Shown here: positions 10,983-52,800 of the stretch, in pieces
How positions within the stretch are numbered: position 1 is the first letter of the stretch
Layout of the letters: each line of letters starts with the position of its first letter
From: Takakia lepidozioides
Lineage: Eukaryota; Plantae; Bryophyta
Reading direction: 5' to 3'
Assembly: GCA_030704615.1 (NCBI GenBank)
Contig: CM060732.1
Span: 30,442,001 to 30,506,000, forward strand
Length of the DNA: 64,000 nt
Program-made: the position numbers and the translations under genes
Notes under the pieces: generated by a model
What the model was told of the DNA's origin: nothing
The model's input: the letters and a program-made list of their open reading frames with translations, nothing else
Database searches by the model: none

Positions 10983-13900
10983 ATGCCAAGGAGTGCGAGG
11001 CTTGCGGTGTTGCTGGTGCTGGCATTGTGCCTGGAACATGGAGCAGGGCAGGCCAATGTATCAACCTACACACTTGGATTCATGTCGCCATCAGCAGACT
11101 CCTCCATCCCTGCCAGCCTCGCCACCGCATGGTGAGAGATCTGTCCTGGAAAACCTGAAACTCTTCTTGCTCAATTTGTACCTGATGATAGAAACTGGCG
11201 TTTCATAGAGTTGAACAGGCAACCAAGAGGACGAAAATGACGAAGTGAAACTTGAGTGCAAGAATCGGTGATGACTTTTGTAAGTCACTGCTTTGAAGAG
11301 GTGAATAGTGGACTGTATTCTGATGTTGTAAGTGGTGTTCTTTCCTAGAGTGTTGTGCCAAAAAAAGATGATGATCATGCGCAGCAGGACTCGATACTCC
11401 GAAGCAAATTCGAGAGACATCCATATTCTCCCTCTCCTCCCTCCCTACTTTCCTTTTTTGATACGTTTTGACGTGGTATTCATGACTTCAAGGGTACTTA
11501 CCTTAAGCACAGATACCATTTGATTGGGAATCGGATTTCATGAGAATGGCAGTGGAAGATTGTGCTCCCTTGAGTGGCAGGTCTCCGTCATAGGAGTGTG
11601 AACTGTATTTGCATTTTTTGGTACCTTGCCAATTGGCATCTTTAACAATCTCTTGCATTTAATTCAAAGTCAACAGGAAAATCGTCATTAAGGCAGTATC
11701 ATATGGAAGCCATATACTGCTAGAAATCTTCTGATCAAGTATCCCGCTCTGGCTTTTCCTGCTTTGTTGTGGGGCTGCGAAAATCTGTATTTTTTCCGCC
11801 GGGATTGCCTGACTCACAATCCCGACCAAAGGCTGTAATAGATATATCAAGCCGGTTTCATTACCCTCACAACTTGGGGTTGAACATCCACGTCCCGTAA
11901 TGGATTATGAAAAATCATGTATAGAAAAGAGAGAGCAAAAGAATCAAAATTTTTGGTCTAGCTTTTTTATTTATCCTTCGTAATACTAACGACGGAAATT
12001 CCCGTCGTACCTCCGGCTTTCGAAGATTCGAGTGCTTGGGGGGCGCTTTTTTGTCTAAAGCCCGAATCTCTTGTTTCCAAGCTTCAGCCCCCCCACCGTA
12101 TTTAACAACAAGTACCAGGTACGAAAATCTAGAAAAAGATTCTATGTTCGGTGGTCAGTATATGCCAATAATAACTCCAGCCTTGGCATTGACATGTTCA
12201 TAATCCATATATGTGGGACCTGGGTTACTTAAAACTAAATTTTGACCTTACGGGTATCATAATTATGTGAGGAGCTGGTCACGTGGCTTTTTCTCTCCAA
12301 AGTTTGCAATCTGAAAGCCTCGGTTTTTAAGTAAACATGGAATTATATCCACCAAAGGTGTGTAAAGGTTTTCTGAAGTGTCTGTTCTAATCCTAGGCCT
12401 CCTTGCTACAGTCAGTTACTTTCTTCCACACTGTCTCTCAGACAAGCTAAACGGCGGAGACTACCCACCTTTTATTCAGTTTCTAACAGCTTTTCTCCCT
12501 CACATCATGGAGTATGGTTGGTTGATGAATTTTGCATTGCATGTGGGAATGGTGTCAGGCAATCAGCTTTTCGGGTGGCTCTGGAGGTACTGAACTCTGA
12601 GGGCCGCACCTACAGACTTGAAGGTCTATCAAAAGAAAGCGAATGTGATTGGCAAGCTGCCCAAAGAGGGGCAGAGGCCATGGTGGCCACAGGTGTGGAG
12701 CCCCCGCTGATTGGTGCTGTTGGGCCAGCCTGCAGTGGGGCAGCCATGGCATGTGCACGAGTTTTCAGGGAACATAATATCCCTCTTGTTTCATTTGCTG
12801 CAACAGCGGAGCCCCTCTCTGCCAGAGCTTACTTCCCCACATTTTTCCGCACTGTGTAAGTCCACAGTGTCTATATGTGGATGTACATAACCATGATCAT
12901 TTAAGTTCCATCCTCTCAATTGTAGTTTTGAAGTGTTCCGCATTGGTAATTGCACTAGCTGAAGTTGAACAAGTGCTGGCGCATGCTGAGAACCCGGGGT
13001 CTAGGTCGTCTTGAGAAAGAGAAATAGGAGGAGGAGGAAAAGGCAGATGAGGCAGCAAAGGTCTGAGGTTCCTGTCTTTTGGCAGCCTTTTTTCAGGAGT
13101 GTTCCTTATCTGCAATATCTGGATTGAGTGGCATCACATACCTTCTTGTTTGGGGCTCTCTTGCAGGTATAGTGATACTCTTCAGGCAGCAGCTGTAGCA
13201 GCCAGTGTAGGTGCTCGACACACGTCCCTTCCCTGTGAAATTTTCCTTGTTGGATGTCAGCTGTAGATATTGGCCCTTATTCCTCTGCAATCCTAGTCAT
13301 ACATGAACGTGGTCGAGGCATGTGACATATGCCTAGTCTCTGTCCTGTCCACATCTGCTGCAATCCCTTGGTCATACAGTCAATGATTTAAAGCAAAAGA
13401 CAGGACTACAGTAAATTGGCGGGGATATTTCAAACCCTTCAATCTTTGAACTTGTTGCAGATTGCGAAGCTGAACATGACTAAAGTCACAATGCTATCCA
13501 CAAAGGATTATTACAGCGAAAACTTGGCCCAAGACATCAATGCGGTTTGCTCATTTCCCTTCCTTCTATATGCAGTATGTGAACAACCACCCTAATTCAG
13601 ATTATAGCACTTGTTTTCATTCTCTCTCCACCATAAGACTAGGCTATACAGGTATGCAACACACATTCCACGATTGCAAAATGTACATATGCCATCTCTG
13701 ATGATCTTGACTTGTCTGGTGCGTATGATTGGAGTCATCGGATTGCCAAAGTACTCGAGAATTGGTTAAAATCTGATGTCAGCGGAGCCCATTGGGTGCA
13801 TTTGAGAATTGTCTCCACTTGGATGCCACATGAAAAGACAAAGGGCAAGCCTACAATCTGTGGGCTCTTTATGGTGGTCCTACTATCTTTAACTGTGGCT

Positions 13901-17765: not shown

Positions 17766-18389
17766 GCCAAGTAGGATGCATAGTGGTTGGTTTGCCTTGT
17801 GGATCAGCAGAAACTTGCATCGACTCAATCACAGTGGCAAACTGGCCCAACCCAATCATCCCTTTGCATTCAACCTCTGATCCTCATACAATATTGTGAT
17901 TCTTCATAATATATAATAATATATAATATAAAATGCAGTTCCTGTGAACTGCATTTTCTCCCACAGGATATTCAATGACATCTGTGCTTCGATCTTCTAC
18001 CGGACAATCTACGAAATTCTCACATGGACATTTAGAAATTTCGGTCGAATAGTCTCTATTTCCTGTATGTGTCCATCTCCCGATTTTCTGTATTTCTCCA
18101 TCCCTCCAATTTAAGACCCTCACTGGACTGTCGTGGCAAATGCTCACATTCATCTGTCATTTCATGTATTCATCCACATACCCATATTCATCCATCCATC
18201 TGTTTTTTTCTTTAGCTCATCCAACCTCCGCTGTATAGTGGAGGTTCTAGAATTGGACTCCTTGACATTACATGCTTTCGGACTAAGCAAAACTCCATTT
18301 CCTAGGAAATAGTTAGTTTTGATATATTGACATTTGGGATTGACCCAAATATCAATTCAGGGGCCAATATATGTTTGGGCACCTGGCGT

Positions 18390-18612
18390 TGTTATCTTCA
18401 CGACAGACCGCGGTGGGCTCATCTTTCTCAAGTTGAGCCTCACCGCGTCTAGCTATAACGCCGTAGTGTGGATTCCCCAAGGCGTGGGTGGCACTTGGCT
18501 CGACTTAATATATGAGTGATGTTTTCATATGCAAGTGACAGACTCGAGTTGATCTTTATCGAGTGATAAGGAAAGAAATGATACAAGCACACAAACACTA
18601 AGCTCTCTCAAA
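18390..18612 (-). repeat. Possible LTR remnant adjoining the inverted DNMT fragment
   Basis: Non-coding; ends ...GATAACA on the minus strand like an LTR terminus; no partner copy in the window. Confidence 0.25.
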
Positions 18613-18614
18613 CT

Positions 18615-19267
18615 CCAAATCATGCGCCCCCAGCAACGAAATGTCTGCTAGCAAGGCCTGCTGATATCCACGAACCGCAGACACCGGCAACAACGCAGGG
18701 TACTGCTGCACCAACTGAGCAACATGGTGTAGGGAGACGCGTCGTGCAGTCTGATCCCTCTCCACATAGAGGTAATGCCAAACTCGTACACCTGTCTATA
18801 GAACAACAACCAATGCGGTGCTGATCCCGCCAAACAAGTCCAAAAGGCAAATGTCTTCATCCGGATACTGCCACACAATCGGTATGGTATCCAATGGTGA
18901 CAACTGAGGTGGACCTGGTGCAATCCCCGCAATCCTCTCGACGGTACAAACGCCTCTTCCCAGGCTTGTTGCACCCGTCGATCAGCAACCCGCTGCAAAT
19001 CCTTGCTCGAGCCCCACAATAGAGTGTGAGTAACCATGGCAGGCAACTCCGCCATACCATGCATGTCATCATGCTCTTCCGGAGGTGACACATCCTCTGA
19101 ATGAGTCATCCAACAACTCTCCAGGCCAAGTCACTGCAGCTATGAATGCTGCCAGTGTCGGCATCTTGCCTCGTTGGGCAACCGCAACTCCCCCTATGAA
19201 CGTCACAGGGAGCTGCACACGCCGGGCCTCCCCTGACTGCCATCCAGTCCTATAGGAAGCTGACTCC
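18615..19267 (-). pseudogene. Diverged inverted fragment of the Gypsy protease-tail to DNMT region (methyltransferase motifs I-III)
   Basis: Minus-strand translation ESASYRTGWQSGEARRVQLPVTFIGG...PPQLSPLDTIPIVWQYPDEDICLLDLFGGISTALV...YLYVERDQTARRVS...ADISLLGAHDL aligns with the plus-strand 20955-21620 peptide. Confidence 0.85.
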
Positions 19268-19515
19268 TATAGGTGTGGTATCACGGGGCAACCCGTGGCC
19301 AACGAGCGCCTAGGGCGGGCCGTAAGGAGTCGTGGCGGTTAGAGCCACGGAAGGCCGCGAACAGGCAGAGTGAAAAAATAAAATAAAATAAAATTCACTC
19401 GTTTCGTGGGACCTTGATGGGGAGGCTGGGCTCTAAAGAACAATGGTTTTGAGCTAGCTGATCCGGCAGAAAAGCAACTACGACGTCCACCCAAACTACT
19501 GTTGCACCAGCACCA

Positions 19516-20190
19516 GTGGCGGTGCCTGCCTTCAACCCTGTTGTGGAGTTCTTCGAAGAGTTGAGAAGGAACTACCAAGGGATAAGGCTAGAGAAGTTGA
19601 GGAGTTTGCAAGAGTTCCAGAGGAAGCCTACTGAGAGTTTGAGGGAGGCTTTCACTCGCATGAGGCGCTTGATTAATGTAACCCAAGGGGTTACGGAAGC
19701 TCAGGCAGTCCAATTCTGGTACGGAATATTGGACAAGGAGCTGAGGAGAAGGGTGCGGGATGCAACTCTCCTACAAGCGGCCCAACCCACCTTAGCAAAT
19801 GTGTTTTTACTGGCAGAGCGGATAGAGCTCAACATGGTGGAGGAACAAGTGGTCATGGTGGGATTTGCTAAGGAGGCACCACGGGGTAGTGGTACTCCTA
19901 GCCAGCCACTACCTCTACGTGCTCAAGGCAACAAGGGGGCTCAGGTGAAGCCCAGGGAAGGGCAGAGAGGACCTTAGATGCAGGGGTCTCTCCCTTCATT
20001 TGCAAGCCAACAACGGGCGGATGTGGTGTGCTGGACATGTGGAGGACCCCATGTCAAGAAGGATTGCCCAGAAGGAGGCAATGGTTTGGCACCGGCACAG
20101 CCTACACAGTTGCAGTGTAGGCATTGTGGCAAGTACGGGCATGGAGAGGCCCAGTGCTATGGTTTGCATCCTGAGCTGTGCCCAGGCTAG
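19516..20190 (+). pseudogene. gag: Gypsy gag with two zinc-knuckle-like motifs
   Basis: LRSLQEFQRKPTESLREAFTRMRRL (gag MHR-like), CWTCGGPHVKKDC, CRHCGKYGHGEAQC; in-frame stop at 19975-19977. Confidence 0.85.
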
Positions 20191-21380
20191 TTCCAATGGA
20201 ACAATGGTGGCCGGGTGCGAGGTGGAGCAGCCCAGAGAGGACGAGGTGGCCAGGCACGAGGTGCAGGCCAAGGGCAAGCTCAACATGGCCAAGGACGCGG
20301 AGGTCAGGGTGTTGACCAAGGCATGGCCGACCGGCTTCAGCAGCTAGAGCAGAGGCTCGCTGCCATGGCCACAGCTCAGGTGATACCGGCTCCAAGGCCG
20401 GATGGTCCACCTACTGCTCCTGAGGGAGGAGACTTGGGAGGCATGGGATTCATGTGTCGGGCAGCACTACCACTACCACTATGGGTGGGGCACCACTACC
20501 ATTGGTGAGGGGTGCCACTACCACTACCACTGTGGGTGGGGCACCAGCATGAGTTCCTGAGCCACAGGGTGCGGAGGTGGAGTTGGATCCAAAGCGTGGG
20601 GAGGCAAGCCGTTAGGCCAGGCTTCCTCAGTCATTCACATTGGCAAAGACAGAATTGACGCCGTCCATGGCACCTAGTTCTCGCCCGACTGTTACCGAGG
20701 CGGAGGTTACTATGCCATTGGGGAGAGCTACACGGGCAGCACCACTACCTAGTGTTGCCAAGGCTACAGCAGCTAGTATGCTGCTAGGGGCGGCCACATC
20801 TGTGTGTCAGGCTCCATTGTTCTCGGCTACCATGATTACGAAGCCGGGGGTAAGACCAGCTGAGATGTTCAGGCTGACAACTACACTCTGAGAGAGTGGG
20901 AAGTTACTTCATCTTCAGTTATACCCGATGGGCTTTATTTTGGACTTTTGGGAGGAAACGGCATCCTACAGGCCGGAATGGCAGTCAGGGGATGGTCGGC
21001 GTGCACTGCTCCCAGTGCGGTTTATTGGGAATGTAGCGGTGGATCATAGGAACATGATGCCCACATTGGCTGCATTCTCAGGGGTGGTGGCTTGGGGTGG
21101 TGAGCTCTTGGAGGGCAATAGCCATGCAAATGATAGGCCACCACCTAATGAGGACAAACAATTGGCATACAAGGCTGATTTGCTTCCTCATGTGTCTGTT
21201 CATATTCCACTGTGGGGTACAGTTAGGAATTTGCATCGAGTAGCAGGCGAGTGTGTGCACCAAGCATGGCAGGAGGCATATCCATTGGTGAGTAAGGGGA
21301 GTTCAGTGATATCACCTGGACTTCCTCAGTTAGCTCCTTTGGATACAGTGCCCATTACCTGGCAACCACCTGATTCAGGG

Positions 21381-22330
21381 ATTTGTTTGCTAGACTTGTT
21401 TGGAGGCATGAGCACTGGGCTTGTAGGAGTGTTGCAAGCTGGGATCAAAGTACGCAAGTACTTGTATATGGAGAAGGATGAGATAGCTCGGCGTATTTCT
21501 ATGCGCCACGTTGCCTTGTTCACACACCGGTACCCTGAGTTGTTGCCTCTCTCAGCAATTCAAGGGTATCAAAAGGCCTTGCCAGCAGACATTACCTTGC
21601 TGGGGGCGGATGATTTGGACCGGCATGGTGCCATTGACTTGGTGATAGCTGGATGGCCTTGCCAAGGACACTCTCCCGCAGGTCATAGGAACGGCTTGCA
21701 TGATGCATGATCGCATTTGTTTTGGAAGATGTTGAGAGTGTTGCGTAACTTGCAGACGAGGCAAGTGCAACCTCTAGCCTATATCTTGGAGAATGTTCCT
21801 CTTATGGGGGACTCTCGGGCCACGGTTATGGCTAGTGTGCATCAGGTGCGGTCTTGGATTGGATCGGCGGTGCTATTGGATGCAGCAGCGATGGGATCAC
21901 GACCGCATCGACCTCGATTGTGGTGGACCAATCTTGCACCACCAGAGCTGCTCAAGAGAGCATACGATTCCATTCAACGGCCACCCAATCTCACAGTTGA
22001 GGGCTTTTTGGACCAAGGGAGGCAACAACAGAGGGTGTGACATGATGACCGTCCACCTTTAGCAGTGGTAAATCGAGTGGGGCAGCCACGTGCGGCCTTG
22101 CCTATGCTCATGAGCTTTCCCTCGTCTCATGTTTTTCAAGACAATGGTCTTGGGTTGATTTGGGACAGTGTGCTACAGCAATTGGTAGAGCCCAATGCAG
22201 ATGAGCGAGAGCGGGCAATGGGATTTGCCACGGGCACTACAGCTGTGCCAGCTCTGTCAAAGGCATCACGCCGACATGTGTTGGGTCAAGCAATGGATCG
22301 AAATTGCTTGACATGGGTTATTGGCTTGTG
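21381..22330 (+). pseudogene. C5 cytosine DNA methyltransferase domain (DNMT3-like) inside the Gypsy pol
   Basis: One reading frame broken only by TGA at 21708 and 22038. Motif I LLDLFGGMSTG, II YMEKD, III ADITLL, IV DLVIAGWPCQGHS (PC 21657-21662), VI YILENVP (21789-21797), VIII DAAAMGSRPHRPRLWWTNL, IX ERERAMGF..GTT, X RRHVLGQAM. Confidence 0.92.
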
Positions 22331-22799
22331 CATGGCTGAGCAACGGAGGTTGCAAACAGTGGTGGCTACTTCTGCACTCCCATTTGGTATTGTATCCCCT
22401 CTGCCAACCGAGACAGTTAAGGCAGTGAATAGGGGCAAGCACAGGATCATGGGGTGCAAACACCCATGGCAAATGTGGGATGAGATGCGGAAAGAGAGAG
22501 TCTTTGGATCTCTCAAGCAGCAATATGAGGAGTAAGAAGAGCCATACACTGAGGATCAATTGGAGGCCAAGGTGGCCAATGTTTTTGAAGAGGTTGAGAA
22601 TGTTTCTTTCCCAGAGGATGTTCTCAAGGTGGTTATGGCAGAGCAAGTGGAGGCTACGCCACAGTCAGATTGGGCGGACAAGGCCCAAGAGGTTGCTATC
22701 TAGCAACCAAAAGATTCGTCTCCTACCTCCAAGCCTGATGTACCCAAGGTTACCGTCACTGAGGACAATTGGGAAAGTCACCGGAGGAGAGAGACGGAG

Positions 22800-24180
22800 G
22801 GTCCAGCAATTTCGAAGGGCTTATAGAAATTGCTTTGCTTTCGGTTTGAAGGATTTGGGGAGTTTGAAGGGTCAAGAGATTCGTATTGATTTGGCAAGTG
22901 ACACCCCAATCTTTCGAAGGCCCTACCGGTATAGTGACATGGAGAGGTCATTGAGAGTTGTTCGAAGCTGGATTGGTGGAGTTGTCAAGCGGGGAGTATG
23001 CCTCGGCAATGGTGATGCCAGCTAAGAAGGATATCTATGGCAATTGGACAGAAAGAAGGATGTGTGGGGACTATCGTCCTATGAACCGTCAGACTAAGTC
23101 CGATAGATATGCCATGCCAACTCTAGAGGAAATTTTTGATGCCATTGGGCATGCAAAGGTGTTAAGCACATTGGACTTGCGATCCGGTTACCACCATCTG
23201 CCAATCAAAGAGGCTGACAAGCAAAAGACGACATTCTGGGGGATTCATCAACATGGGAAGGATTGCTTGTACCAATGGCGGTTCCTACCGTTTGGGTTGA
23301 AGAATGCTCCCGCAGAATTTCAGAGGGTCATGGAAATGATTCTTGTAGAGCTAGACTTCACCCGATGCTACATTGATGACATCATCATCTTTAGTGCTAC
23401 GATTGAAGAGCACAAGAGACACCTTCAGATGGTGTTTGAGCGCTTGAGAGCGCATGGGTTGAAATTGCACCCTGGGAAGTGCAAGTTCTTCCACAACCAG
23501 ATTGAGTATCTGGGCCACATGATATATCCTGGAGGACTGGGTGTTCAAAAGACGAAGGTGGAGGCCATTGCACGCATTCCACGCCCCATCGATGTTAGCA
23601 GGGTTCGTGCTTTCATGGGGTTGGCAAACTACTATCGACGGTTTGTCAAGGGATTTAGCAGCATTGCAAAGGCTCTTACCAAGTTGACCAAGGTGGGTCA
23701 GGAGTGCCCCGGAAGGAGGAGCAGGAGGAAGTCTTTGAGGAACTCAAGGCTCGATTGACTTCTGCACCTATTCTGAGGCGGCCTATTCGGGGGCGGTCTT
23801 TCCAGCTACATATGGATTGGAGTATGCTGGGAATTGGAGCAGTGCTCACACAGGTGGATGACGAGGGAAGAGAGTTCGTAGTGGCATATGTCAGCCACTT
23901 GAACAATGATGCCGAGGCGAAGTATAGCTCATATGAAGGGGAGTGTCTAGCTGCGGTATGGGCAGTGGCACATTTCAGATGCTACATCTATGGCAACCTC
24001 TTCACCCTTGTCACGGATCACCAACCATTGAAGTGGTTGATGGAGTCAGACAAGCTTACAGGGAAGCTTGCACGGTGGACACTTATGCTTCAAGAGTACG
24101 ACTTCCAGGTGGTGCATCGAGCCGGTATAGTCAACCAAGATGCGGATGGATTGAGTCGCAATCCATGCACAAGTGAGCTT
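22800..24180 (+). pseudogene. pol: Gypsy reverse transcriptase and RNase H (frameshifted)
   Basis: PIFRRPYRYS, RMCGDYRPMN, LDLRSGYHH, LPFGLKNAPAEFQR, YIDD, FMGLANYYRRFV; RH DWSMLGIGAVL, YEGECLA, LVTDHQPL, ADGLSR. Confidence 0.95.
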
Positions 24181-24539
24181 GATGATACAAGAGCTCGTTG
24201 GCATGGTGAGACGGACAAGGAGATGGTGCCAGGATGGCACGCATCTGCCTTTTTATGCATTCTAGCAATGGGAGCTCAAGCTGGTCCATCCCATGTGATT
24301 GGTCATAGAGATAGTGTGCATGACGATCCAGAGATCAGTGAGGAGCTTGGTGGTGCTAAGGATGTACATGAAGATGTAGTAGTGTTGGCCTACCTTCGTA
24401 CTAGAGAGACAACAGCCAGTGTGATTGCTAAGGAGAGAGATCGGATCCTACAACGAGCCAAAAGGTTCAAGTGGGAGGGGACTCACCTACTCCGAGTATG
24501 GGAGGATGGACGAGTGAGGATTGTGCCTCATCCAACACA

Positions 24540-25799
24540 ACGAGCGCGATTGGTATGCCATGCCCATGAGGAGTTGGGACATTTTGGGGTGCGACGCACT
24601 CATAGTTTGCTGCAAGAACAGTACTGGTGGCGGGGCATGCACACGGATGTGCAACAGTTAGTGGCAAGGTACATGGTGTGTGATAGAGTGCGAGCTTCTT
24701 TCAATGCACCTACTCCACAATTGCATCCTTTACCCATTATGGGTTTGGGCTATCGTTGGAGTCTTGACTTTGCAGGCCCATTGTCACTAACAATTCGCCA
24801 TAACAATTATGTGCTGGTGATGGTGGAACATTTCTCCAAGTGGATTGAACTGGTGGCATTGCCCGACAAGGCAAGTGAGGGAGCTGCGTATACATTCTTA
24901 GATCGAGTGCTTGGCCAATTTGGTGCTCCAGCTGAGGTACTCACGGACCAGGGGAGAGAGTTCTTGAGGGAGTTTTAGGCTTTGTGTGAGCAAGCCTTGA
25001 TAGATCACCGCACTACTTCTCGGGATCATCCCAAGGCTGATGGCCTAGCAGAGAGGGTTGTACAAACAGTCAAGCGAGGCTTGTGCAAGTATGACTTACA
25101 GAAGGGACACTTAGGAGATTGGGACCTTCAGCTACATTGGTTGGCCATGGGCTACAGGTTTAGCAAACAAGCATCACTTGCCTTGTTCTCGCCTTATTTC
25201 CTTCTCTTTGGCCGAGAGCCAGATTTGCCTGCATCTATTCGCAGGGAGACTGCAGTAGTTATCAACCTTGATGATCCGGATGTGTGGACATAAGCATGTG
25301 CCCAGCGGGCAGAGTTGTTCAAGAGAGTCATGCCTATGGCTTTTGAGAACCTTGCTATTGCCCATTGAGGTACGTCACTATACGTGGAGGCGGATATCGG
25401 CCAGGTGTTCGGTGTTTCCACCCTAGGGACTATGTGTATCTGCAACAGACAACGCCTACGACTTTGGATGTCACAGCAGGGCGTGTGATTCTAAGGGTCC
25501 GGGAGGTGTTGCCTTCAGGAGTGTTGATTATGGAGGGTCGAGATGGCATGGTATGGAAGGACCATGTGCGCAATTGTGCGCCATGTCACCTTCCATATGT
25601 GGATGGGAGGATAGATCCTAACCTTGCAGTGGTACCTGTAGGGTTGTGTTGCATGCTATGTGGGCATGCTGGTGGTGCCGCGACCATGTTGGTGTGTGAC
25701 AAATGCTCAAGGGGGTGGCACATGGGATGCTTGACACCGCCACTTGAGGAGGTTCATAGTGGAGAATGGTTGTGTCCACAATGCCTTGGACATAGGTAG
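24540..25799 (+). pseudogene. Gypsy integrase with C-terminal PHD finger (25650-25784)
   Basis: HEELGHFG zinc finger, SLDFAGP, LTDQGREF, AERVVQTVKR, SPYFLLFGR; PHD C4HC3 CMLC-x11-CDKC-x4-H-x2-C-x14-CPQC including the EWLC motif. Confidence 0.92.
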
Positions 25800-26584
25800 T
25801 GGGCATGACAATGGTGGAATTGACAAGTGATCCAAGGTCTAGCTGATGGGAGCTCAACGCCATGGATACTTAATTGAAGATCATGGATTGCAGGAAGGCG
25901 AGTAACGATGGGGCTACTTTTACACCCGGCCTCTTGATCTATTGACTTTAGATACTGGGACATGTGCGATTGAAGACCAAGCGTTGATTTATTGAGATGG
26001 ATACTTGTCAGCTATCCGGTATTAGATGGACCTAGTCACCAGCTAGGGGGGTGATTGTGGCATAGTTTTCTAGGATTGTGTGCTTAGAATGTATGGTGGA
26101 CAGCAATGTATGTTGTGGCACAATGCTTAGGTGCACGACAGATATGTATGCGCACGACAATGGGTTTAGAGACGGTCAAAGAGTGTTTCTTTCTCTTCCC
26201 GGGTCTACATCTCTTGTTGCCACTGGGGATCGCCTTAATGTCTCGGGGGTTGGGACCTGTCATAGACACCAATTATCTTCCTCAACCATTTCAGTGATTT
26301 TCATCTCCTGTGATGAAGCATACGCATTACGTCATTTGCCTTATAGACATATGGATGCGGACACCTTGAAAGAGGCCATTGGGGACACCGGTGGTATGGA
26401 ATATTGGCAAAGTTCATCAGCAGAATGACGAGTATCTAGGGCATAACATGAATCTTGAGTTTACATCGAAGGCACAGGAGAATGTCGAAAATCCCGACGT
26501 GCAGGAGGATGAATCAAACAACAGATCATCGCAGAGTTTGGAGAATCTGTGTGTAGGACTTGGGAGAAACAATTGGAGAAACTT

Positions 26585-29420
26585 GTAGTGCGTGCTATTG
26601 GGTGATGATGGGGGTGCACTGTTCGAGGGCAGGATTCAAGCTTGCATTCCCGACGAGGTGATTCTCAATGACAAATTGGGAGAGGACGACGTTGGAGTTC
26701 TTGTCACCAGAATACTTGATGGAGGATCTGGCTCTCTGATGTCCCTTGTTAAATGACCTTAAATAATAAAAACAAAACTTTTGGAAAGTGGGCGACTACT
26801 CTCAAATGATCTGGAGAATTTCATCAGATCTTCGGACAGTATCGAATATGAAGATCACAAGACAAAGCGGCATATAGCATCTTTATGAGGAAGAAGATGG
26901 ATCAAAATTTGGAACACTCCAAAAAATATATGAAAAATCTTACTCTGGAGGAAGTCAGATCCGTGAGCAGCAAACCTTGCTGCAGACTTCACTGCTGTCA
27001 ATATTTTGACCGGAGAAAAACCTTAGATATCCGTACTTCGTTTTGGGGATCCACTTTCGATGAGAGGAGAGAACATGGACTAAATGTTTCTAAACGACTT
27101 CACATGCTGGAAGGGACCTCTCGCAGGGCTTACGTTACGATTGAGGGTGTAGATGTTTGTGAGACTGCATGGTGGACAATTCCACCTACATGGAGTACAA
27201 GAAGTTGAGTAAACAGGGTTGGTTGTCAAGTCTTCATGGGAACCGAGGAGTGAAGCGGCCACGACCTCGGACGCTGCAGGCAAAAGATAACATTATGTCT
27301 ATTATCAACGGAAATACTGACCTCATGCCTCATAAGACAAGGTGCATTGGGGAGGGAAGGTGGGATACTTTGAGAGTCTTACCACCTGAAATGAACTGGA
27401 AGAGAATACGAGAATAGTCCAACGAGGTAAGAAATCTCCCTCTTTCACTTTCCTTCCTGGAAGTATTTTCTGACTTCAATGTGGACGGTTCTCTGGGAAT
27501 GTGTCTCTTTTCCACTGTGGTGCTAGTTTCATGAACCCTCCACTGTCCAGTGGAAGTTCCTTTTCTGACCCTTTCTGATTGTCTCAGACGAACAGACTTT
27601 TTGGGTTGAAAGGAGTTTCACAGTCGGCTGTTAGCCGCATCCGGAGTCGGATATTTCCTAACGTGGAGGTTCGATAAACTGGGAGCACATTTACGAAGTG
27701 CACGGAATGCGAGATGTTAAAGGACCTGATCAAAAAGTCTGTCAAGAGGAGTGCGGAACAGATGACACACAAACGAACGCTTGATAAACATTTGAGGCAC
27801 CAAGAGTCGTGCAGAAGACTGTACCATAGCTGGAGGAATGAATCTATTATGATTCTGGAGGAGTTTTTCTGTATCATTCACGACAAAATGGATCATAGGA
27901 AACAACTATTCATGGGCTACAGACTCCAAACAAGATGATTTCGGGATTGGGTTAGCTGCCAGTCTCACTAACGGGAATGGTCACGCACGGACACGGTGAT
28001 AGAGCTTACGGTCAGTTCTCTCTTGAGTTCTGGAAGGGAAATTCAAACTTTACAATTGGGTCTTTGGCTCGTTGCCTACGCCAGCTGGAGAAGCCAACCT
28101 GTCGCGAGTCTAGGAACATTTTCGATTATGAACTTCAAAATGAGTTTTTCAAATCGCTCTTAAGAGGTAAATCGAGATGTTTGGATGCTCTTAAACCCTG
28201 TAGGTCGGAAGACAGACGGGGTGCTCTTCCACTTCCCAAAAGACTCTACTTACAAACGAACAACTCCGCGAAGGACAATAAGAACGGATGGATGCTTGCT
28301 TTTCTATCCCTCCTCACTACCAAAGATATTTTTGAAGAGATCCAGCTAGGGTTTCTCATGGTCGGCCACACCCATGAGGATATCGACGGATTCTTCAGCT
28401 ACCTTTCGAAGAAGCTAAAGGAACGCAACACCTACATTCTTCCATTTGATGAGGTCATTCATGACCTCGCAAGATCTGCAGTTCATTCCACAGATTATTC
28501 AAGAGGTTCTAGACTTCAAGAAGTTTATAAAGGGCTGTATTCTGGATGGAAAGGAGGCGTTGGTCAGGATTTCAGAGATGCACTGTTCCGCTTTTTCAAG
28601 GATGCGGAGGGTTGGCCCGTCATGAAGTACAAGAAGTCAGCTACTGATTCGGATTGGCTTCCAAAAAACACTAGCATGAAGATGTGGAAGTCGAATCCCG
28701 ACGGGACTCCAAAGCTCCCTGAAGAGACCTAAACGCCGTTCCAAGAAGAACGGCCTGGGGAGTTGGAGACGACTCCTCCGAAAAACAGTCATTAACAAAA
28801 AATGGAATTAAAACATACAAGGATTTTTGGACAAAATGAATGTTGCTTGACGATCATTACAGAGGTCTAATGGAACAATACGACCAATACCGGAAACTCC
28901 GGAACATATTCATCTGCTTGAGGGATTCTGGCCGAAAACAAAATGGTCAACGAATCATCGGAGAGATGACATCCAACCACAGATAGTGCATGATATGGAA
29001 GAAGAGGATGAAATCCCAGAACCTTACTGTGGCCCGAGGTGTGAGCGTCCAAGGATACCCTTGAATCCGTTCAAGGATATTGAGAAAGGTTTTTTTGTGC
29101 TCGTTCGCCCTCATGACCCAAGGACGTGCCCAGTCTGGATGGGGGTGGCAATATCTGATGTGATCCGAGAAATGAAGAATCCTAATTTTAAGAAGGTGAA
29201 GGTGGAGTGGTGTAGACTGAAAAAAAGAGGTAACCCATCAGACTTGGAAAGGTACAGGGACTATTGGTCAAAACTTTGGGAGTATAACTCGTCAGATCCT
29301 GCTCAATGGATCCACGTGAACAATGTCATGTGGACAATGCCACCACGAAAAAATACAACAAAGAATATCACTAAGAGAATTACAGCCGCGGAAGCAGTGA
29401 AGGCGCGCGCGAATTAGGAG
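26585..29420 (+). mobile_element. Degenerate Sola-like (DUF7869-type) DNA transposon transposase region
   Basis: KPCCRLHCC, VCETAWW, HGNRG, KCTEC, IIHDKMDH, GMVTHGHG, LYLQTNNSAKDNKN (D>N at the usual DN), FLMVGHTHEDIDGFFS; several stops and frameshifts; TIRs not identified. Confidence 0.75.
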
Positions 29421-43800: not shown

Positions 43801-46800
43801 ATTTTTGAGGTACATCCAAACTCACTGGTTTCCAAACCTGCAAGATAAATGACATTTGTACAGATTCACTGGCTTGCTTACCTCACGGGTCTCATCAATG
43901 GCCACCTCTGTCTTCTCAGCTTCAGCGACCTTGATTTTAATTTCATCAGAAGTGATTTTTGATTGTGCCAATGTGTTGATGAGAGTTTCATCATCCAGAA
44001 TGTTACCCTACACCCACAACTGACCACCATTTGTCTCTCTGCATGCAGTTTGCTCAACAGTTGTAGAGACGTGAGGTGACAAAGGGGCAATGTTTTCCTT
44101 TAGAAACTAGATAGACAGAAAGAGAAGGTATACAATATTCACAGGGCCCTGTGGGCCTATGGGATGAAGTACACATAAGAATACATTAAAAGTCACCCAA
44201 AGACTAAGTGTCTCATGCATGTAAGCAGCCAGATGCTTCGCGTTCTCAAAGCTGAAGGCCTGTACCAAAGACTGGGGGACTCTCACGACACGATAGTGTG
44301 TGCCTCTCCTGAAGGAGAACAAGGAAGATGAATAATAACAAGATGTGTTACATCCACAGGAGCCCTATCACACACAGTAGAACTACTGAAACCAAATAGC
44401 AAATCAAACCCCAAATGTTGCCTCGAGAGGGACTGCCTCATGTAGGTAAGCTGCTAAGTACTATCTTCATCAGTGACGGCTTCTAGTAATAAGTAGACAA
44501 AGAAATGAAATGGTAATTACAATGTCCGCGGGAAGCTTGAAGAGCTTATGGGACAAGAGGAAGAAATGGAAATGGAAATGGTACTTTATAACGTCTGCGG
44601 AAAGCTCAAAGCCTTATGGGACAACAGAAAAAACAACAGAGAGGAAACAAAACCAGAGCCAAAAAACAGCCCAAAAGAAGAAAGAAACAAGAAAGAAAAA
44701 CGAAATGAAATGGTATTTTATGACGTCCGCGGAAAGCTCACAGAGCTTATGGGACAAAATGGAAAAAAAACATGAGAGAGGAACAAAACCAGAGCCAAAA
44801 ATAAAACTATTGCTCGAGGGATTGTCTACTAAGGGTGAAGGCCTTGTGCAGGTAGGCTTGCAATCCTCATAGTGGAAGCCTTCAGTGAGAGATTGAGTTC
44901 CGCGGAATAGACAGTGGAATCTCCCACGGATCTCGTAGTACAGAGGGCAATAGAAGAAGAAGTGTTCTTCAGTTTCAACTTCCCGGTTGCGCCCTGTGCA
45001 AGCTGGACATAGGCGGTCCTACCGTTGCAGGTTTTCCCATCTGCCAGTCTCTATCCTAGATTGTGGGAGCCCACCCTGAACCACCCCAATGCCCTCAGGA
45101 GGGAAGGAGATAAAGGTGCCAAAAGGGAATTGGGGCCAAAAACAGCCCAAAAGCAACTAATCTGAATGTATTGTCTAAGAGTCAATGCTTCATGCAGGTA
45201 ACTACCAAGCATTTTTGATCCTCGTAATGGACAACCTCCGCGAGAGATTGGGTATCCTAGGACGAAACCACCCAAAGAGAGAGCCAAAAGCAGCCCAAAT
45301 GCAACTACAGTTCAAGGAATTGCCTAGGGTCAAGGCCTCTTGCAGATAAGCTGCCAAGCATTTCTGATCCTCACAATGGAAGACTTCTGTGAGAGATTGG
45401 TTCCACGGAATAGACAGTTGAATCTCCCACGGATCTCATAGAAGAGAGGGCAATAAAAGAAGGAGTGTTCTTCAGTTTCGATTTCCTGGTTGCGCCCAGT
45501 GCATGTTGGGCAGAGGCGGTCCTCCCGTTGCAGGTTTTCCCATCTACCAGTCTCTATCCGTACATTCTAGGTCAGTGAGGGGTCTTCTGCTGAATGGAGG
45601 GACACAGTTGGAAAAACTGTTCCTATGATTCAAAACAGCCCTGATGAACTGGAGTATGTTTCAATGGCTTATAATGCTCCCATTAGTTCTTCTGAGATTG
45701 TGGAAGCAATTGAACATTTAAATGGATATAAAGCTGGTGGACCTGATGGTATTGTCAACGAGCTTATCAAGCACGGTGGCGATCCCATGATAGAGGCCCT
45801 AGTTCTCCTCTTTAACCTTATCTGGAAGACTGAAATGATCCCCTTTCGCTGGCGACAGGGGGTCATTGTCAATCTATACAAGAAGGGTGACAGAGAAGAA
45901 CCGGGGAACTACCGTGGCATCACGCTCCTCAATGCTGTTGGCAAGACATTCTGCAGAGTTATAAGTACTCGTCTCGAGGTTGATCTGGAGTCCAGAGGTT
46001 GTTTCCACGAAGGCCAAGCTGGCTTTCGACGAAACAGGGGCTGTGTGGATCATATCTTCACTCTAAGCCAGATTATCCAGGGAAGGAAAAAAGAAGGGAA
46101 ACCCACTTATGTCTTTTTCCTGGATGTCAAAAAGGGTTATGACACAGTGTGGAGGGATGGCCTATGGTTCCGCCTCTGGTCTTGTGGGATCAAGGGAAAG
46201 ATGTGGAGAGTTGTCCACAACTTGTATGCTCACACCAAAAGCTGTGTCACTGTTAATGGACAGAAGTCCAACTTCTTTGACATAGACCAAGGTGTAGCTC
46301 AAGGATGTACTCTCTCCCCTCTGCTCTTCAATGTTTTCATCAATCAACTCCTCGAGGATGTGGAAAGTGAGGGATTTGGGTTAAGGGTGGGTGATACCAC
46401 CATACCAGCCCTTATGTTTGCGGATGACTTCGCAGGCATAGGGGAGACTCCAACCAATCTCCAGGAGTTGATTGATTGCGCGAAGAGATACTTTGATCTT
46501 TGGGGCTAGAGGCTAATGTCAGCAAATGTGCAGTGGTAGCATTCAACGACAGAGGAGAGGGAGGAAGTGATCTTAAGTGGCAGTGGGGTAGCCAAGAGAT
46601 CCCGGTCCTCCCTTCCTACACTTACCTGGGCGTTGAGTTCTCCTCCAATTGTAATTGGGATGCACATATCCGGAAAGTTGTTCAAACTGGCAAGGGCAAA
46701 GCTCTGGGGCTCACTAAATTTTTCCACTGCAGAGGGGTCAACTCTGAGGTTAAGAAAACCATGCTTTGTCGCGTTATTAGACCTGCCTTGGAGTACGGAT

Positions 46801-49800
46801 CTGCTATATGGGTTGATAACTCCAACCAGGCTAAGTCTCTAGAATCCATTCAAGTGGGGGTGCTTAAGGAGTGTATGTCAGCATGCTCCAAAACAGCCAA
46901 TGTGGCTGTTCGGGGTGAGTTTGGCATTCCGTCCTTAAGCTCCCGACGAGATGAATTCAAGGTCAGATGGTGGGGTCAGCTGCAACATATGCCCAACACC
47001 AGATATCCTAAATTAATCAACTCTATATCTTGGAAACAGGACCGCCCTGTCAAACAGGCTAAGTCCTGGCAGAAGAGAGTAGAAGAGATCCTCAAGGACC
47101 TGGACCTGGATCCGCAAATCTTGACCCTGCTGGATAAATCTGACTTAGAGGCTGTAGTGTCCTCAGCCATGTCTGTTGCCATGAGATTGTCTGATGAAAA
47201 TGAAGTTAGGCAGAAAACTTCCCTGAACTTGTTTCCAGTCTGTGACATGGGGGAGGACATCTTGGATGACCTCAAGGGTCTACCCACTCTCGGCACTAGA
47301 CTGAAATTTAAACTCAGGGCAGGAAGCCTACCTTTGAACAGCAAACAGAAGCAGAGAGGAAAGGGAGAGTGCAATTGCCCGTTGTGTGGGCAATCTGAAG
47401 ACAGTATTCATTTTCTCATACACTGTCCGGGGTTCTCTCACCAAAGAGACGCTCTCTTCAAATCTATTAAGGGAATTGTGCCTGTACCCCTGTTTACCAA
47501 CTTTGAAAGTCTCGAGGCTGAGCCAAAAGCCCAGGCCCTCCTGAGGCCTAGTTTTTGGGCAAATCACACACAGCAGATTGATGCTTGTGTGAAGGGATTT
47601 CTAGAGGATATCTGGAAAACCCGGATTAATTCTTTATATGGAGGTAAGTCTTACTACCAACGTCAGCCCCTGACAGAGGTAGGTTCTGTCCCTTTTGTTC
47701 CCGCTCAAACTGGGCGCGGGGTCAATGGCCACAAGGCTACGGCAAACAACGTCTTATGAGTACAATCTATCCGTACATTGTGGGAGCCCACCCTGAACCG
47801 CCCAATGCCCTCAGGAGGGAGGAGATAAAGGTGCCGAAAGGTAATTGGGCTGCAAGATTCTATCGTCATGGGAGAGAAAGTCGATGGAAATGGAGTTTTG
47901 TTGTTAGAGTGGGTGGCTTCCATGTTTGCCTGACATGGAGTTACATAAGTACTCTTCTGATGAGTCTGTTACGATCCTATTTGGATGTGATTTCCACCCC
48001 TTCTGTATTTTGTGGCAGTAGGGAAGCAACATAGAGTTCATTCCAGTAAAAAATACTGCACACGCAAGCATACCAGGAGGGCTTGAAACGTGCAGTTTTG
48101 AGCCTAATAGATGTTGTGAGGGCTCTTGCCGTGAGCCATTTGGGTGGAAGGGCTTGTAACCTTTTAAGAAAGATTGTAAGCCGGAAGAGGGCCTCGGTTT
48201 GAAGTGGCACAAATGCAAACTCCGCACATAGAATGTGTGATGGAGTTGTGCCTCTAGTGCCAAGTTTGCATTTGGTGTGAAGGCAGATAGAGAGTTGAAT
48301 CTCCCAAGGTATAAAGGGCAGTGAATGAAGATTTTCCCACCAGGAAACTGGGACACCAGGTTCCCAGAACTCACAGCCATAAGTGGCGGCAGGGATGACA
48401 ACAGAGTCGAAGAGCCACTTTTCGGTGTATTTGTTATTTAGCCTGAAGGCCCATGGAGGCAGGCTTCAATCTGTCCATAGATTTGGGTGAGTGGATAGCC
48501 AGCCCCAGGTATGGATATAATTTCATGACCTCAAGCTCTTGCTGGTTGAAGAGGAACCCCTCCGATCTGCACGGCCATCGAAAACCACGATCTTAGTTTT
48601 GCGTAGGTTGACCTGCAACGAGTAGTCTTTGGAGAAGTCTTCAAGGATGCAAACAAAAGAAATGAGAAACGAAATGGTACTTTATAACGTCCATGGAAAG
48701 CTCAAAGAGCTTATGGGACAAAAGGGAGAAACCACAAAGAAGAGACAAACCCACAGCGAGGCAGCCCAGAAGCCCAGAAGCCCAGAAAGAAAAGAACGAA
48801 AACGAATGAAATGAAATGGTACTTTATAACGTCCGTGGAAAGCTCAAAGAGCTTATGGGACAAAACGGAAAAAAACAAGAGAGAGGAGACAAAACCAGAG
48901 CCAAAAAGCAGCACAAAAGCAAAGAACTTCCTTATGTCCGATGGGAGGTCCATTGGACAAAGTAGAGAATGAATGAAAGGTAATGGAACTTTATAACGTC
49001 TGCAGAAGCTGAATGAAAGAAATGAAATGAAATGAAATGGTACTTTATAGAAATGAAATGAAATGGTGCTTTATAACGTCCGCGGAAAGCTCGTAGAGCT
49101 TATGGGACAAAATGGAAGAAAACATGAGAGAGGAATAGAGAAATGACATGAAATGAAATGGTGCTTTATAACGTCCGCAGAAAGCTCATAGAGCTTATGG
49201 AAAGAAAACATGAGAGAGGAAACAGAAAACCAGAGCCAGAGATAAGAACTATTGTTCGAGTGATTGTCTAAGGGTGAGGGCCTCGTGCAGGTAAGCTGCC
49301 AAGCATTTCTGATCTTCATAGTGAAAGACTTCAGTGAGAGATTGGGTTCCAGGGAATAGACAGTGGAATCTCCCACGGATCTCATAGTATAGAGGGCAAT
49401 AGAAGAAGAAGTGTTCTTCAGTTTCAATTTCCTGGTTGCGCCCTGTGCAAGCTGGACATAGGCGGTCCTCCCACTGCAGGTTTTCCCATCTGCCAGTCTC
49501 TATCCGTAGTGTCGCGTTATTAGACCTGCCTTGGAGTACGGATCTGCTATATGGGTTGATAACTCCAACCAGGCTAAGTCTCTAGAATCCATTCAAGTGG
49601 GGGTGCTTAAGGAGTGTATGTCAGCATGCTCCAAAACAGCCAATGTGGATGTTCGGGGTGAGTTTGGCATTCCGTCCTTAAGCTCCCGACGAGATGAATT
49701 CAAGGTCAGATGGTGGGGTCAGCTGCAACATATGCCCAACACCAGATATCCTAAGTTAATCGACTCTATATCTTGGAAACAGGACCGCCCTGTCAAACAG

Positions 49801-52800
49801 GCTAAGTCCTGGCAGAAGAGAGTAGAAGAGATCCTCAAGGACCTGGACCTGGATCCGCAAGTCTTGACCCTGCTAATCTGACTTAGAGGCTGTAGTGTCC
49901 TCAGCCATGTCTGTTGCCATGAGATTGTCTGATGAAAATGAAGTTAGGCAGAAAACTTCCCTGAACTTGTTTCCAGTCTGTGACATGGGGGAGGACATCT
50001 TGGATGACCTCAAGGGTCTACCCACTCTCGGCACTAGACTGAAATTTAAACTCAGGGCAGGAAGCCTACCTTTGAACAGCAAACAGAAGCAGAGAGGAAA
50101 GGGAGAGTGCAATTGCCCGTTGTGTGGGCAATCTGAAGACAGTATTCATTTTCTCATACACTGTCCGGGGTTCTATCACCAAAGAGACGCTCTCTTCAAA
50201 TCTATTAAGGGAATTGTGCCTGTACCCCTGTTTACCAACTTTGAAAGTCTCGAGGCTGAGCCAAAAGCCCAGGCCCTCCTGAGGCCTAGTTTTTGGGCAA
50301 ATCACACACAGCAGATTGATGCTTGTGTGAAGGGATTTCTAGAGGATATCTGGAAAACCCGGATTAATTCTTTATATGGAGGTAAGTCTGAAGGCTACGG
50401 CAAACAACTTCTTATTGTTGGAAACTAGACCTGTCCTCTACCTCCTAGAGATATTGACAGATAGCTTCTAGCACAAGCAGCAGTACAAAAACTGACAGCC
50501 TAAACCAACCAAAGAGTTAGTATTAACAAGAAGTGTCAGTCCTAACAAGAATGCTCCTTACTGCAAAAGAAAGAACTTACAAAAGTAGATGCTGGACTTC
50601 TCCTCCTCCTCTCTCTGCAATCTACTAGGATAGCACATCCAAAATGCTAGAAGAAGTGCTGGGCATTGCCTCAGCCTTTCCCTTAAATCCTACATGAGTT
50701 CTCTAGAAACTTCTGGTGGCTGGAACCTTCTGGTAGAACTATCCCTAGCCGTCAAAAAACCCTAACAGAACCCTAGCTAACTAAATCTGAGCTGACTTCT
50801 AACACTCCCACTCAGCGAGGATTGAGGCTTAACCCAATCAGTTCCATGCATCTAGAATGCTTTTCTTTGGATAGAGCCTTTGTGAGTGCATCAGCTGCCA
50901 TGTCCTCAGTCCTACAGTAAACCAACACAATCTCCAAACCAATCATTTCTCTAATGAAATGATGTTTGATATCTATGTGCTTGGTCCGGGCATGATGAAC
51001 AGGATTCTTGCTCAGCTCAATGCTGCTCCTGTTATCAGCATGCACTTTCGTTGGCTGTTCTTGACTGAAGCCAAGTTCACCAAGAAGCCTTCGAATCCAA
51101 ATGGCTTCTTTAGCTGCATGAGTCAGAGCCATATACTCTGACTCAGTCGAGGATAGAGCAGTGGTCTGCTGTCTTTTGCTGCTCCAGCTCACAGCACCTC
51201 CACTCATTACAAAGCAGTAGGCAGATATGGATCTCCTCTCATCTGTGTCTCCTGCCCAATCTGCATCACTGTATCCTTCTAGTGATGCTCCAGTGTCCTG
51301 CTTGTTGTAAGTTAGACATGTATCCGCAGTCCCTTTCAAATATCTAATCACCCTCTTGAGTGCTTTCCAATGCTGAGGTCCTGGGTTGTGCATGAACTTA
51401 CTAAGCATTCCCACTGCATAGGCAATGTCTGGCCTGGTGCCAATCATTGCATACATCAGAGATCCCATGGCTTGCTGATATGGAACCTTAGCCATTTCCT
51501 CAATCTCACTTGGAGATTTTGGCTCCATTTCCTTACTCAGCTTGCAGCCGGTTTCCAATGGTGTTGGTGCTGGTTTGCAGTTCTGCATACCAAACTTCAC
51601 AACAACATTCCTGACATACCTCTCTTGGCTCAACTTTATAGTTCTCGCCTTCCTGTCCCTCAGAATCTGAATTCCAAGTAGGTAGTTCACGGCTCCAAGA
51701 TCAACCATCTCAAAGGTTTCACTCAAATCATGCTTCTGCCTGCGCATGGTATCCTTGTTGTCGCTGATCAGTAGCAGATCATCCACATAGAGTGCTATTA
51801 TCATGACACCTGATGTCATGTAGTAAATGCTCTGATCAGCTGTACTCCTTACAAAACCTTGGCCTGCAATGGCAGCTCTAGTCACAAACATGAGATCAAA
51901 GCTGGTAGTTTTGGTAAGGAATCAATTCCAACATTGGCCTCCTCCCGAGTTCCAGATGTACTCAAAAGCTTGTAGAGTCTCTGCTCCTTCACTCCATAGC
52001 AGAGTTCCTCGTTGCCCTTCTGGATGCTGCAAGCATTGTTTCTGAAAATGACATCATACCCAAGCTCATCCAAGGTACTAACAGAGATCAGATTCTTTGC
52101 CAAGTCTGGCACATATAGGACTTTCTGAAGGGTACAACGGGTAACCTTACTCTCTTTTTTGATAAAGTTGACAGGGATTTCTCCCATCATCGTACTTACA
52201 GAAAACGTCTTGTTGCCCATCTTTACGCTCCTAGGCTGAATGGGTTTCAAGTTGTGAAACAACTCCTTCCTCCCACACATGTGGTTAGTAGCTCCAGAGT
52301 CCAAATACCACTCATCTCCACAGTGTTCTCCTTCAGTAGTCAGCAGGTAGTCTTCATCACGACTGTAAGCTGCATCTGCCATAAACAGGTGAACTTCACT
52401 GTCGTTGCCCATGTCAGCGACATGTGCATGTATAGACTTCCCTTTCCTTGGTCTCCACTTGTCCGTCTTGGACTTGTCAATCTTCACCTTGCAGTCCTTC
52501 TGGAAATGCCCAAATTTGCCGCATCGGAAACATGCTCCATCTTTCTTGATGGAAGTAGCCGTCAGGGCATTGTCCATACTTGAGCTACCCCTAGTCAGCT
52601 TGCTTTCTTCCATGATGAGTTGTGAAGTGACATACTTCCAACTCAGTCTACTCTTACCATGAGTAGCCAATGCAGTTTCCACCATGTCATAACTCTTTGG
52701 CAAGGTGCCAAACAAGGTCATGATCTGAAGTGATTCAGTCATGGGTTCTCCCGCATCAACTATCTCCAGACACATGGCTTTAACAGTGGCAATGTGAATG

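Follow-up and report, generated by a model that had tools for sequence, protein, structure and literature searches.

A decayed Ty3/Gypsy element with a DNMT3-like methyltransferase domain in Takakia lepidozioides and its relatives among green plants

Retrotransposons that have captured a DNA methyltransferase (DNMT) are known from dinoflagellates and from the charophyte Klebsormidium, as the original prediction for the present sequence had stated (PMC5890265). The element of Klebsormidium nitens, KnitGypsy-Dnmt3, combines Gypsy enzymes with an intronless, non-permuted DNMT3-like domain under purifying selection, and its direct repeats are split in a DIRS-like arrangement, A1-ORFs (open reading frames)-B1-A2-B2 (PMC5890265). 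These traits are shared by the family of an element found in a 64,000-nucleotide stretch of the Takakia lepidozioides genome (contig CM060732.1, positions 30,442,001 to 30,506,000; this whole stretch is called the window). In the literature searched, Gypsy elements with a DNMT3 are named only in PMC5890265 and in a 2026 preprint (bioRxiv 10.64898/2026.05.21.726589), and Klebsormidium is the single alga from which they have been described; the preprint and PMC12344493 (2025) speak of 'streptophytes', and the supplements of all three may list land-plant copies. 'Marchantia' gave no match in three supplementary files of PMC5890265, among them the species list, and this may be why land plants were missed. 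Since 2018 the role of retrotransposon-borne DNMTs has stayed an open question, as the known hosts are difficult experimental systems; Marchantia polymorpha, which has members of the family, is a genetic model for which methylomes and mutants exist, and the question can be taken up there.

Our results suggest that the window element is a decayed member of a green-plant Ty3/Gypsy family in which the frame for Gag and protease (PR) ends in a DNMT3-like domain, which would be packaged and would likely methylate new complementary DNA (cDNA), with integration predicted to proceed from a circle. We give this reading as a whole a probability of about 0.6, whereas we hold the identity of the family with high confidence.

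A decayed Ty3/Gypsy copy with a DNMT3-like domain

The window element is confirmed as a decayed Ty3/Gypsy copy with an intronless, non-permuted DNMT3-like domain. The order PR-reverse transcriptase (RT)-RNase H (RH)-integrase (INT), with a DDE integrase, is that of Ty3/Gypsy, the protease core being deleted in the window copy and present in relatives. The catalytic C5 methyltransferase domain that had been proposed is matched by PF00145 (E 1.6e-12) on the frame 20892-22535 read with X at stops, and its motifs follow in canonical order: I (LDLFGG, 21390), II (21468), IV (GWPCQG, ending 21668), VI (ILENV, 21783), VIII (21879-21935), IX (ERERAMGF, 22203) and X (22269-22295). The domain lies, as first read, in a single frame without an intron, with TGA stops at 21708-21710 and 22038-22040. 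Its best matches in the PDB were DNMT3A (3e-11), DNMT3B (4e-8), DRM (7e-5), HaeIII (2e-4) and HhaI (3e-3); DNMT1/CMT was absent from the 49 PDB matches, in agreement with the earlier preference for DNMT3 over DNMT1/CMT. A family profile widens the gap (DNMT3A 2e-25, DRM 3e-14, HhaI 3e-9), and for an uninterrupted homologue the predicted fold resembles DNMT3A (Foldseek E 2e-16, TM 0.78 by target). The N-terminus of the query aligns with the C-terminal part of DRM, and the window domain is therefore not circularly permuted like DRM, again as proposed. In canonical motif order and in its nearest relatives by sequence and predicted fold, the domain agrees with DNMT3-type C5 methyltransferases. The copy is dead, as had been concluded: it has lost the N-terminus of gag and its protease core, and stops and frameshifts are spread over its whole length. 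To the gag, protease-like tail, DNMT and RT of the first reading we add a PHD finger at the integrase C-terminus and split terminal repeats.

A search with the domain returned 70 proteins, with the best matches in Marchantia polymorpha (69%), Calypogeia fissa and Sphagnum, and the domain was present in all 70; 229 protein clusters (50% identity) reach an E of 1e-30. These named bryophyte proteins bear out the suggested extension to embryophytes. No DNMT-bearing match from a named vascular plant was among the homologues found, which is weak evidence of absence. Two gene orders occur. Type 1, gag-PR-DNMT-RT-RH-INT-PHD, was seen in Marchantia, Calypogeia, Sphagnum, Closterium and further relatives, and type 2 (chlorophyte type), RT-RH-DNMT-INT-PHD, in Scenedesmus, Hariotina, Chromochloris, Haematococcus, Chlamydomonas eustigma and Cymbomonas; mapped homologues had either gag/PR upstream of the DNMT, or RT-RH upstream and INT downstream. 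About 55 of 79 metagenome loci were of type 1 (DNMT before RT) and 14 of the chlorophyte type, the remainder being weak, mostly bacterial matches; the complete type 1 order was seen in loci such as L003, L013, L015, L028, L038 and L053. It had been proposed that relatives lacking the domain at this position would speak against an element-borne enzyme, and the check showed that relatives carry the DNMT in the same place. Some chlorophyte-type polyproteins also bear PF01585, and one family member (P0330) is labelled a cyanobacterial protein in NCBI, likely through a binning error. Annotations of bryophytes and algae count too many DNMTs because of this family.

Split terminal repeats and the predicted route of integration

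Evidence on the termini comes from metagenome loci and from contigs of the window's own family. No pair of long terminal repeats (LTRs) flanks the genes in the window, and in place of the paired LTRs originally expected we found split direct repeats, A-genes-B-A-B. Locus L038 has the complete form, A1 (339 bp)-genes-polypurine tract-B1 (112 bp)-A2-B2, with a 4-bp target duplication. Such 4-bp duplications were present in all three related insertions with both ends (L038, L015, L031), the left end of the window copy being cut. TG...CA termini with a 4-bp duplication fit Ty3/Gypsy (4-6 bp), but two whole flanking LTRs are lacking. The B|A junction, CA[C/T]GACA-GC-TGTCATG, is palindromic. At 26140/26141, some contigs of the window family enter GC-TGTCATG (16, 14, 2 and 1 in X1, X3, X5 and X6, respectively), while others enter unlike flanks (36 X1 and 23 X3 contigs; agreement 0.37-0.38). 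The junction is also found in L028 and in the chlorophyte-type loci L056 and L064, and L066 has B1...B2; altogether, 3 of 10 chlorophyte-type loci have the junction or a B...B repeat, and the other 7 have no clear terminal features.

The layout A-genes-B-A-B is a circular permutation of an ordinary BA-genes-BA, which suggests that the ends are joined and that the integrase then cuts within the first repeat. Reverse transcription would start by self-priming and at the polypurine tract, yielding linear BA-genes-BA; the ends would join, and the integrase would open the internal palindrome with loss of its middle two bases, leaving A-genes-B-A-B as the insert. The palindromic CA-GC-TG junction and the split repeats thus suggest that a DDE integrase inserts the element from a circular form, a route that we consider to have an even chance of being correct. 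Alternatively, the template for the split repeats may be a full-length RNA that runs from A1 to B2, a mechanism put forward for DIRS elements of the PAT/Ngaro type, or the ends may be trimmed on a linear molecule, in either case with no ligation of LTR-type cDNA. We consider this alternative unlikely. The polypurine tract adjoins B1 and a self-complementary primer site adjoins A1, as in ordinary LTR priming; a run of about 22 bases that follows A1 is complementary to the middle of A, with 18-21 of 21-22 positions matching in each of the five loci compared, all of a single subfamily. The A and B pairs of L038 have diverged equally (92% and 94%), and the A|B junction of L031/L033 retains letters of the primer site, as a ligated circle junction could (n = 1). 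All these points speak against copying from RNA or trimming on a linear molecule. Conversely, the mirror product A-B-A-genes-B, expected from a symmetric circle, was seen at none of 12 distinct left ends, which counts against the circle route; CA-NN-TG is kept at both junction types; and the layout equals that of DIRS elements (PMC5890265).

Two loci at the same insertion site (L015 and L053) have A-genes-B in one and B-A-B in the other; a short form with a single B, like the window's, can therefore arise by recombination between B1 and B2. Split ends would defeat annotation by LTR pairs, and they imply a route of integration that is not described for Gypsy elements in the literature searched.

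The conserved stop, the PHD finger and the possible role of the DNMT

In locus L028, a single in-frame TAG separates an unbroken gag-PR-DNMT frame of 1369 codons from an unbroken RT-RH-INT-PHD frame of 1047 codons. At this site, 43 of 54 scored loci have TAG or TAA followed by CARYY and 2 more have a stop followed by a second stop; of the others, 4 were too short, 2 were of the chlorophyte type and 3 were without the site through insertion or deletion. A perfect CARYYA was found in five of seven subfamilies, the window's among them. It is known that UAG followed by CAR YYA promotes readthrough in plants (PMC2754532). These comparisons show that the TAG at 22701-22703 is conserved across the family and did not arise by decay; the DNMT therefore ends the gag-PR frame and does not lie within pol. 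The description of the DNMT as 'inside pol' hence fails in the strict sense, as the stop (at 22701 and in 45 loci in all) parts it from the RT. Readthrough at TAG-CARYYA is very probable. Ribosomes would mostly halt at this site, giving plentiful Gag-PR-DNMT and scarce Gag-PR-DNMT-RT-RH-INT-PHD, and from a stop of the readthrough type we infer that the DNMT is produced at the level of Gag. Against this prediction, the sequence of the largest subfamily, to which most of the 43 loci belong, is CAACCC and departs from the consensus by one base. Single frames occur in other branches (P0101, P0382).

The DNMT has a dN/dS (ratio of nonsynonymous to synonymous substitution rates) of 0.13 in the single unsaturated pair of uninterrupted copies (L027/L028) and of 0.15-0.17 in three near-saturated pairs; between subfamilies dS was mostly saturated, and pairs of decayed copies gave 0.38-0.88. 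The catalytic Cys is present in 275 of 277 aligned domains and the Glu of ENV in 280 of 285 (redundant set). These comparisons indicate that the DNMT is under purifying selection, and this, together with the near-invariant catalytic residues, argues that live copies use the enzyme, which is probably active in them. DNMT3s from dinoflagellate retrotransposons show CG methylation activity in yeast (PMC5890265). Against activity, no methylation was seen in yeast with the domain from Klebsormidium, a result that the authors deem inconclusive (PMC5890265). In both architectures some domains, 115 of 276 altogether, have Glu in place of the Pro that precedes the catalytic Cys, which may bear on activity.

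The integrase of the family ends in a PHD finger; a chromodomain, which is a chromovirus trait at this position, had no match in profile searches. The closest PDB matches of the PHD finger were CHD4, KDM5A, KDM5B and ATXR5, and also PHF21A and UHRF1. The residue two before the His is Gly or small, and never Trp, in all 146 family PHD matches. Such traits, that is, these relatives and no cage tryptophan, mark readers of unmodified histone H3 lysine 4 (H3K4). The integrase-terminal PHD finger thus resembles unmodified-H3K4 readers in its sequence and would steer the complex to H3K4-unmethylated chromatin.

The fusion of the DNMT to Gag-PR argues for action on cDNA. The protease would free the DNMT inside the particle, where it would methylate new cDNA, likely at CG, and the copy would arrive marked as host-like DNA. 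That cDNA is the main target is, in our view, an even bet. It is also possible that, in the same lineage and with the same enzyme, the DNMT does most of its work once the element has integrated, or in trans, on the inserted copy or its promoter, and so restrains transposition. This option was raised in the discussion of PMC5890265. It would suit the expression expected from the conserved stop, which would give far more DNMT than integrase, and targeting to chromatin would be in keeping with a PHD finger akin to readers of unmodified H3K4. However, the Gag-PR fusion predicts packaging, the chlorophyte-type DNMT lies between RH and INT and travels with enzymes that handle cDNA, and the family is very abundant in the window's host by summed contig depth (not a copy number). 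We therefore consider self-restraint improbable. The observed/expected ratio of CpG is 0.46 in the window element, compared with 0.45 and 0.38 in its flanks, 0.22 in a neighbouring Copia element and 0.36 in a long interspersed nuclear element (LINE). As this depletion is no stronger than in the surroundings, composition gives no sign of self-methylation.

A bolder proposal, which we put forward tentatively and with the odds against it, is that these elements form an unrecognised Gypsy-type lineage as old as green plants (prasinophytes to bryophytes), in which circular cDNA would be inserted by a DDE cut of an LTR-internal palindrome and a Gag-level DNMT3, paired with a reader of unmodified H3K4, would pre-methylate the cDNA. 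If true, replication would be unlike that of any described LTR element, the logic of animal DNMT3-ADD would have been rebuilt in a transposon, and the lineage would have been missed by LTR-pair finders.

Origin, layout of the window and known systems

The RT-RH tree (IQ-TREE, 71 rows) had a thin outgroup of 9 rows, three outgroup rows without paired RT-RH having been dropped. All 62 rows of both architectures fell into one clade (100/100), with members from Klebsormidium (GAQ93234.1), Closterium, Coleochaete, Calypogeia, Marchantia, Cymbomonas, Scenedesmus and Haematococcus; the window stands next to Calypogeia and Marchantia. In the DNMT tree (82 rows; bacterial and phage outgroups only, with 17 weak phage-type or giant-virus-type methyltransferases from viral contigs used solely as outgroup), the window groups with liverwort and Sphagnum rows (SH-aLRT 99), the RT-RH-DNMT-INT type forms one group (99), and the topology mirrors that of the RT-RH tree. 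The chlorophyte type was nested in FastTree, while IQ-TREE left the base open. Because one RT clade includes the Klebsormidium element, the window family most likely belongs, on these trees, to the lineage of KnitGypsy-Dnmt3; one old capture followed by one shift of domain position would be the simplest reading. Some points weigh against this reading. The RT tree departs from the host tree, with Coleochaete nearer the bryophytes than Closterium, and paralogy or horizontal transfer is therefore needed. Moreover, the trees contain neither a host DNMT3 nor the DNMT of KnitGypsy, and the Klebsormidium protein in the RT clade is a partial RT-RH-INT without DNMT.

The original prediction had allowed for an independent capture, in which a bryophyte Gypsy element took up a host DNMT3 in convergence with Klebsormidium. 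The stop between DNMT and RT, unlike the single frame reported for Klebsormidium, would fit such an event, and a tree without the DNMT3 of plant hosts leaves room for it. However, retroelement DNMTs of the algal type match the window domain at 33-45% identity (E 1e-39 to 1e-66), as opposed to a weak match to DNMT3A. The RT and DNMT trees agree, and termini are shared, the junction letters being identical in L056 and the window's family. An independent capture is thus very unlikely. The rearrangements of the window copy (protease deletion, inverted fragment) might suggest that this copy alone received its DNMT, through a nested insertion or from a captured mRNA, but this is refuted by the same position of the domain across dozens of proteins and loci and by the unbroken gag-PR-DNMT frame of L028.

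Table 1. Features of the element copy in the window
Feature	Positions	Strand	Remarks
High-copy segment, left end	18302..18613	+	Cut at 18302; possibly remnant of repeat A or leader, not proven
Inverted fragment of a sister subfamily: linker and first 80 residues of DNMT domain (motifs I-II)	18614..19268	-	tblastn
gag, C-terminal part, with two zinc knuckles (20029, 20116)	19500..20376	+	Stops and frame change; first ~125 residues absent
gag-protease spacer, protease-core deletion (at about 20891/20919), protease tail, linker	20559..21380	+	
DNMT3-like C5 cytosine methyltransferase domain	21381..22352	+	Motifs I-X in order; two TGA stops
In-frame TAG then CAA CCA (CARYYA), predicted readthrough site	22701..22709	+	Between gag-PR-DNMT and RT-RH-INT-PHD
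Reverse transcriptase, YIDD at 23369	22768..23704	+	PF00078, E 2e-33; frameshifts near start and at end
RNase H, integrase zinc finger (24565-24690), DDE integrase core (24760-25060)	23743..25365	+	PF17917, PF17921, PF00665; stops
PHD finger, integrase C-terminus	25650..25793	+	PF00628, E 5.5e-11
Polypurine tract	26040..26054	+	Read from sequence; aligns with tract of L038
Terminal repeat B (26056-26140, TG...CACGACA) and 19-bp extra copy of a B end	26056..26159	+	No A2-B2 after it

Host contigs span 18302-26140 at a summed depth about a thousandfold over the single-copy flank, which indicates a large family and is not a copy number; over the DNMT the summed depth is below that of gag or RT, again not a copy number and not taken as loss of the domain. 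At 18302 the summed depth climbs from about 60-130 to more than 2e5, and 36 X1 contigs diverge upstream. The segment that starts there showed no significant alignment with repeat A of L038 (score 30; shuffles 23 +/- 3.5, maximum 36). The inverted fragment has 66% DNA identity to 20953-21619, and two X5 contigs continue beyond 18613. The gag part has 51-62% identity with residues 135-415 of the Marchantia homologue P0001, its match to PF03732 (E 4e-4) falling short of the family cut-off. About 155 residues of the Marchantia homologue are absent at the protease deletion, only the tail being kept; homologues carry VLLDSGAQP (PF13650) there, and the window picks up again at residue 723 of P0001. 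An X8 contig aligns from 20918 onward only and is preceded by 119 different bases.

Directly after repeat B lies a second repeated element (26164-29417; summed depth 1e3-1e4), possibly a DNA transposon, which encodes a DUF7869 protein (27956-28732, E 2e-35) and has a CpG observed/expected ratio of 0.74, above the rest of the window. Elsewhere, 12377-12859 holds an ANF-receptor ligand-binding exon (E 1.5e-13). Dynein heavy chain exons (Dynein_C, AAA lid, stalk), which fit a plant or alga with flagellated cells, lie on the minus strand at 35390-58375 with LINE and Copia copies between them. At 45571-55972, near-identical LINE copies in both orientations (99%) surround a Copia element whose repeats (about 50416-50806 and 53167-53554) are 99-100% identical, which points to recent activity. 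Between 37000 and 62000, a dispersed repeat of about 60-200 bp that contains runs of GAAAT forms a family of at least 12 copies on both strands.

Comparison with KnitGypsy-Dnmt3 shows differences as well as the shared traits given above. In that element the DNMT is in frame with RT and RH (PMC5890265), whereas the window family has a conserved readthrough-type stop between them. For KnitGypsy-Dnmt3, the parts of PMC5890265 consulted mention no PHD finger, target duplication or junction palindrome and no host other than Klebsormidium, whereas the window family has all of these features and further hosts. EpiLTRs likewise carry their own cytosine methyltransferase, but with a DNMT4-related domain, DAM and a chromodomain, in contrast to the DNMT3-like domain and PHD finger seen here (bioRxiv 10.64898/2026.05.21.726589). 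SymbioDIRS-Dnmt3 is also a retroelement with its own cytosine methyltransferase and split repeats, and it methylates CG de novo (PMC5890265). DIRS elements, including SymbioDIRS-Dnmt3, use a tyrosine recombinase, whereas the window family has an rve DDE integrase and 4-bp duplications, which set it apart from DIRS. Tcn1/Tf1-type chromoviruses and REM1 have, to our knowledge, ordinary paired LTRs. The former share with the window family self-priming in place of a tRNA primer site (PMC6317226), and REM1 shares a PHD, a chromatin-reader domain (PMC6673714); as far as these sources go, neither has a methyltransferase, unlike the window family. The REXdb text contains no match for 'PHD' or 'methyltransferase'. 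Troyka (PMC12440569) is unrelated. Foamy virus integrase is a DDE enzyme that cuts a palindromic CA-NN-TG-type junction in a 2-LTR circle, as proposed here; however, its cut at the LTR-LTR junction restores normal ends, whereas the cut in the window family would lie inside the LTR-equivalent and permute it (PMC1180852).

In summary, this kind of element was known already, and the present analysis adds a wider host range, a readthrough stop, target duplications, a junction palindrome and an integrase PHD finger that resembles readers of unmodified H3K4.

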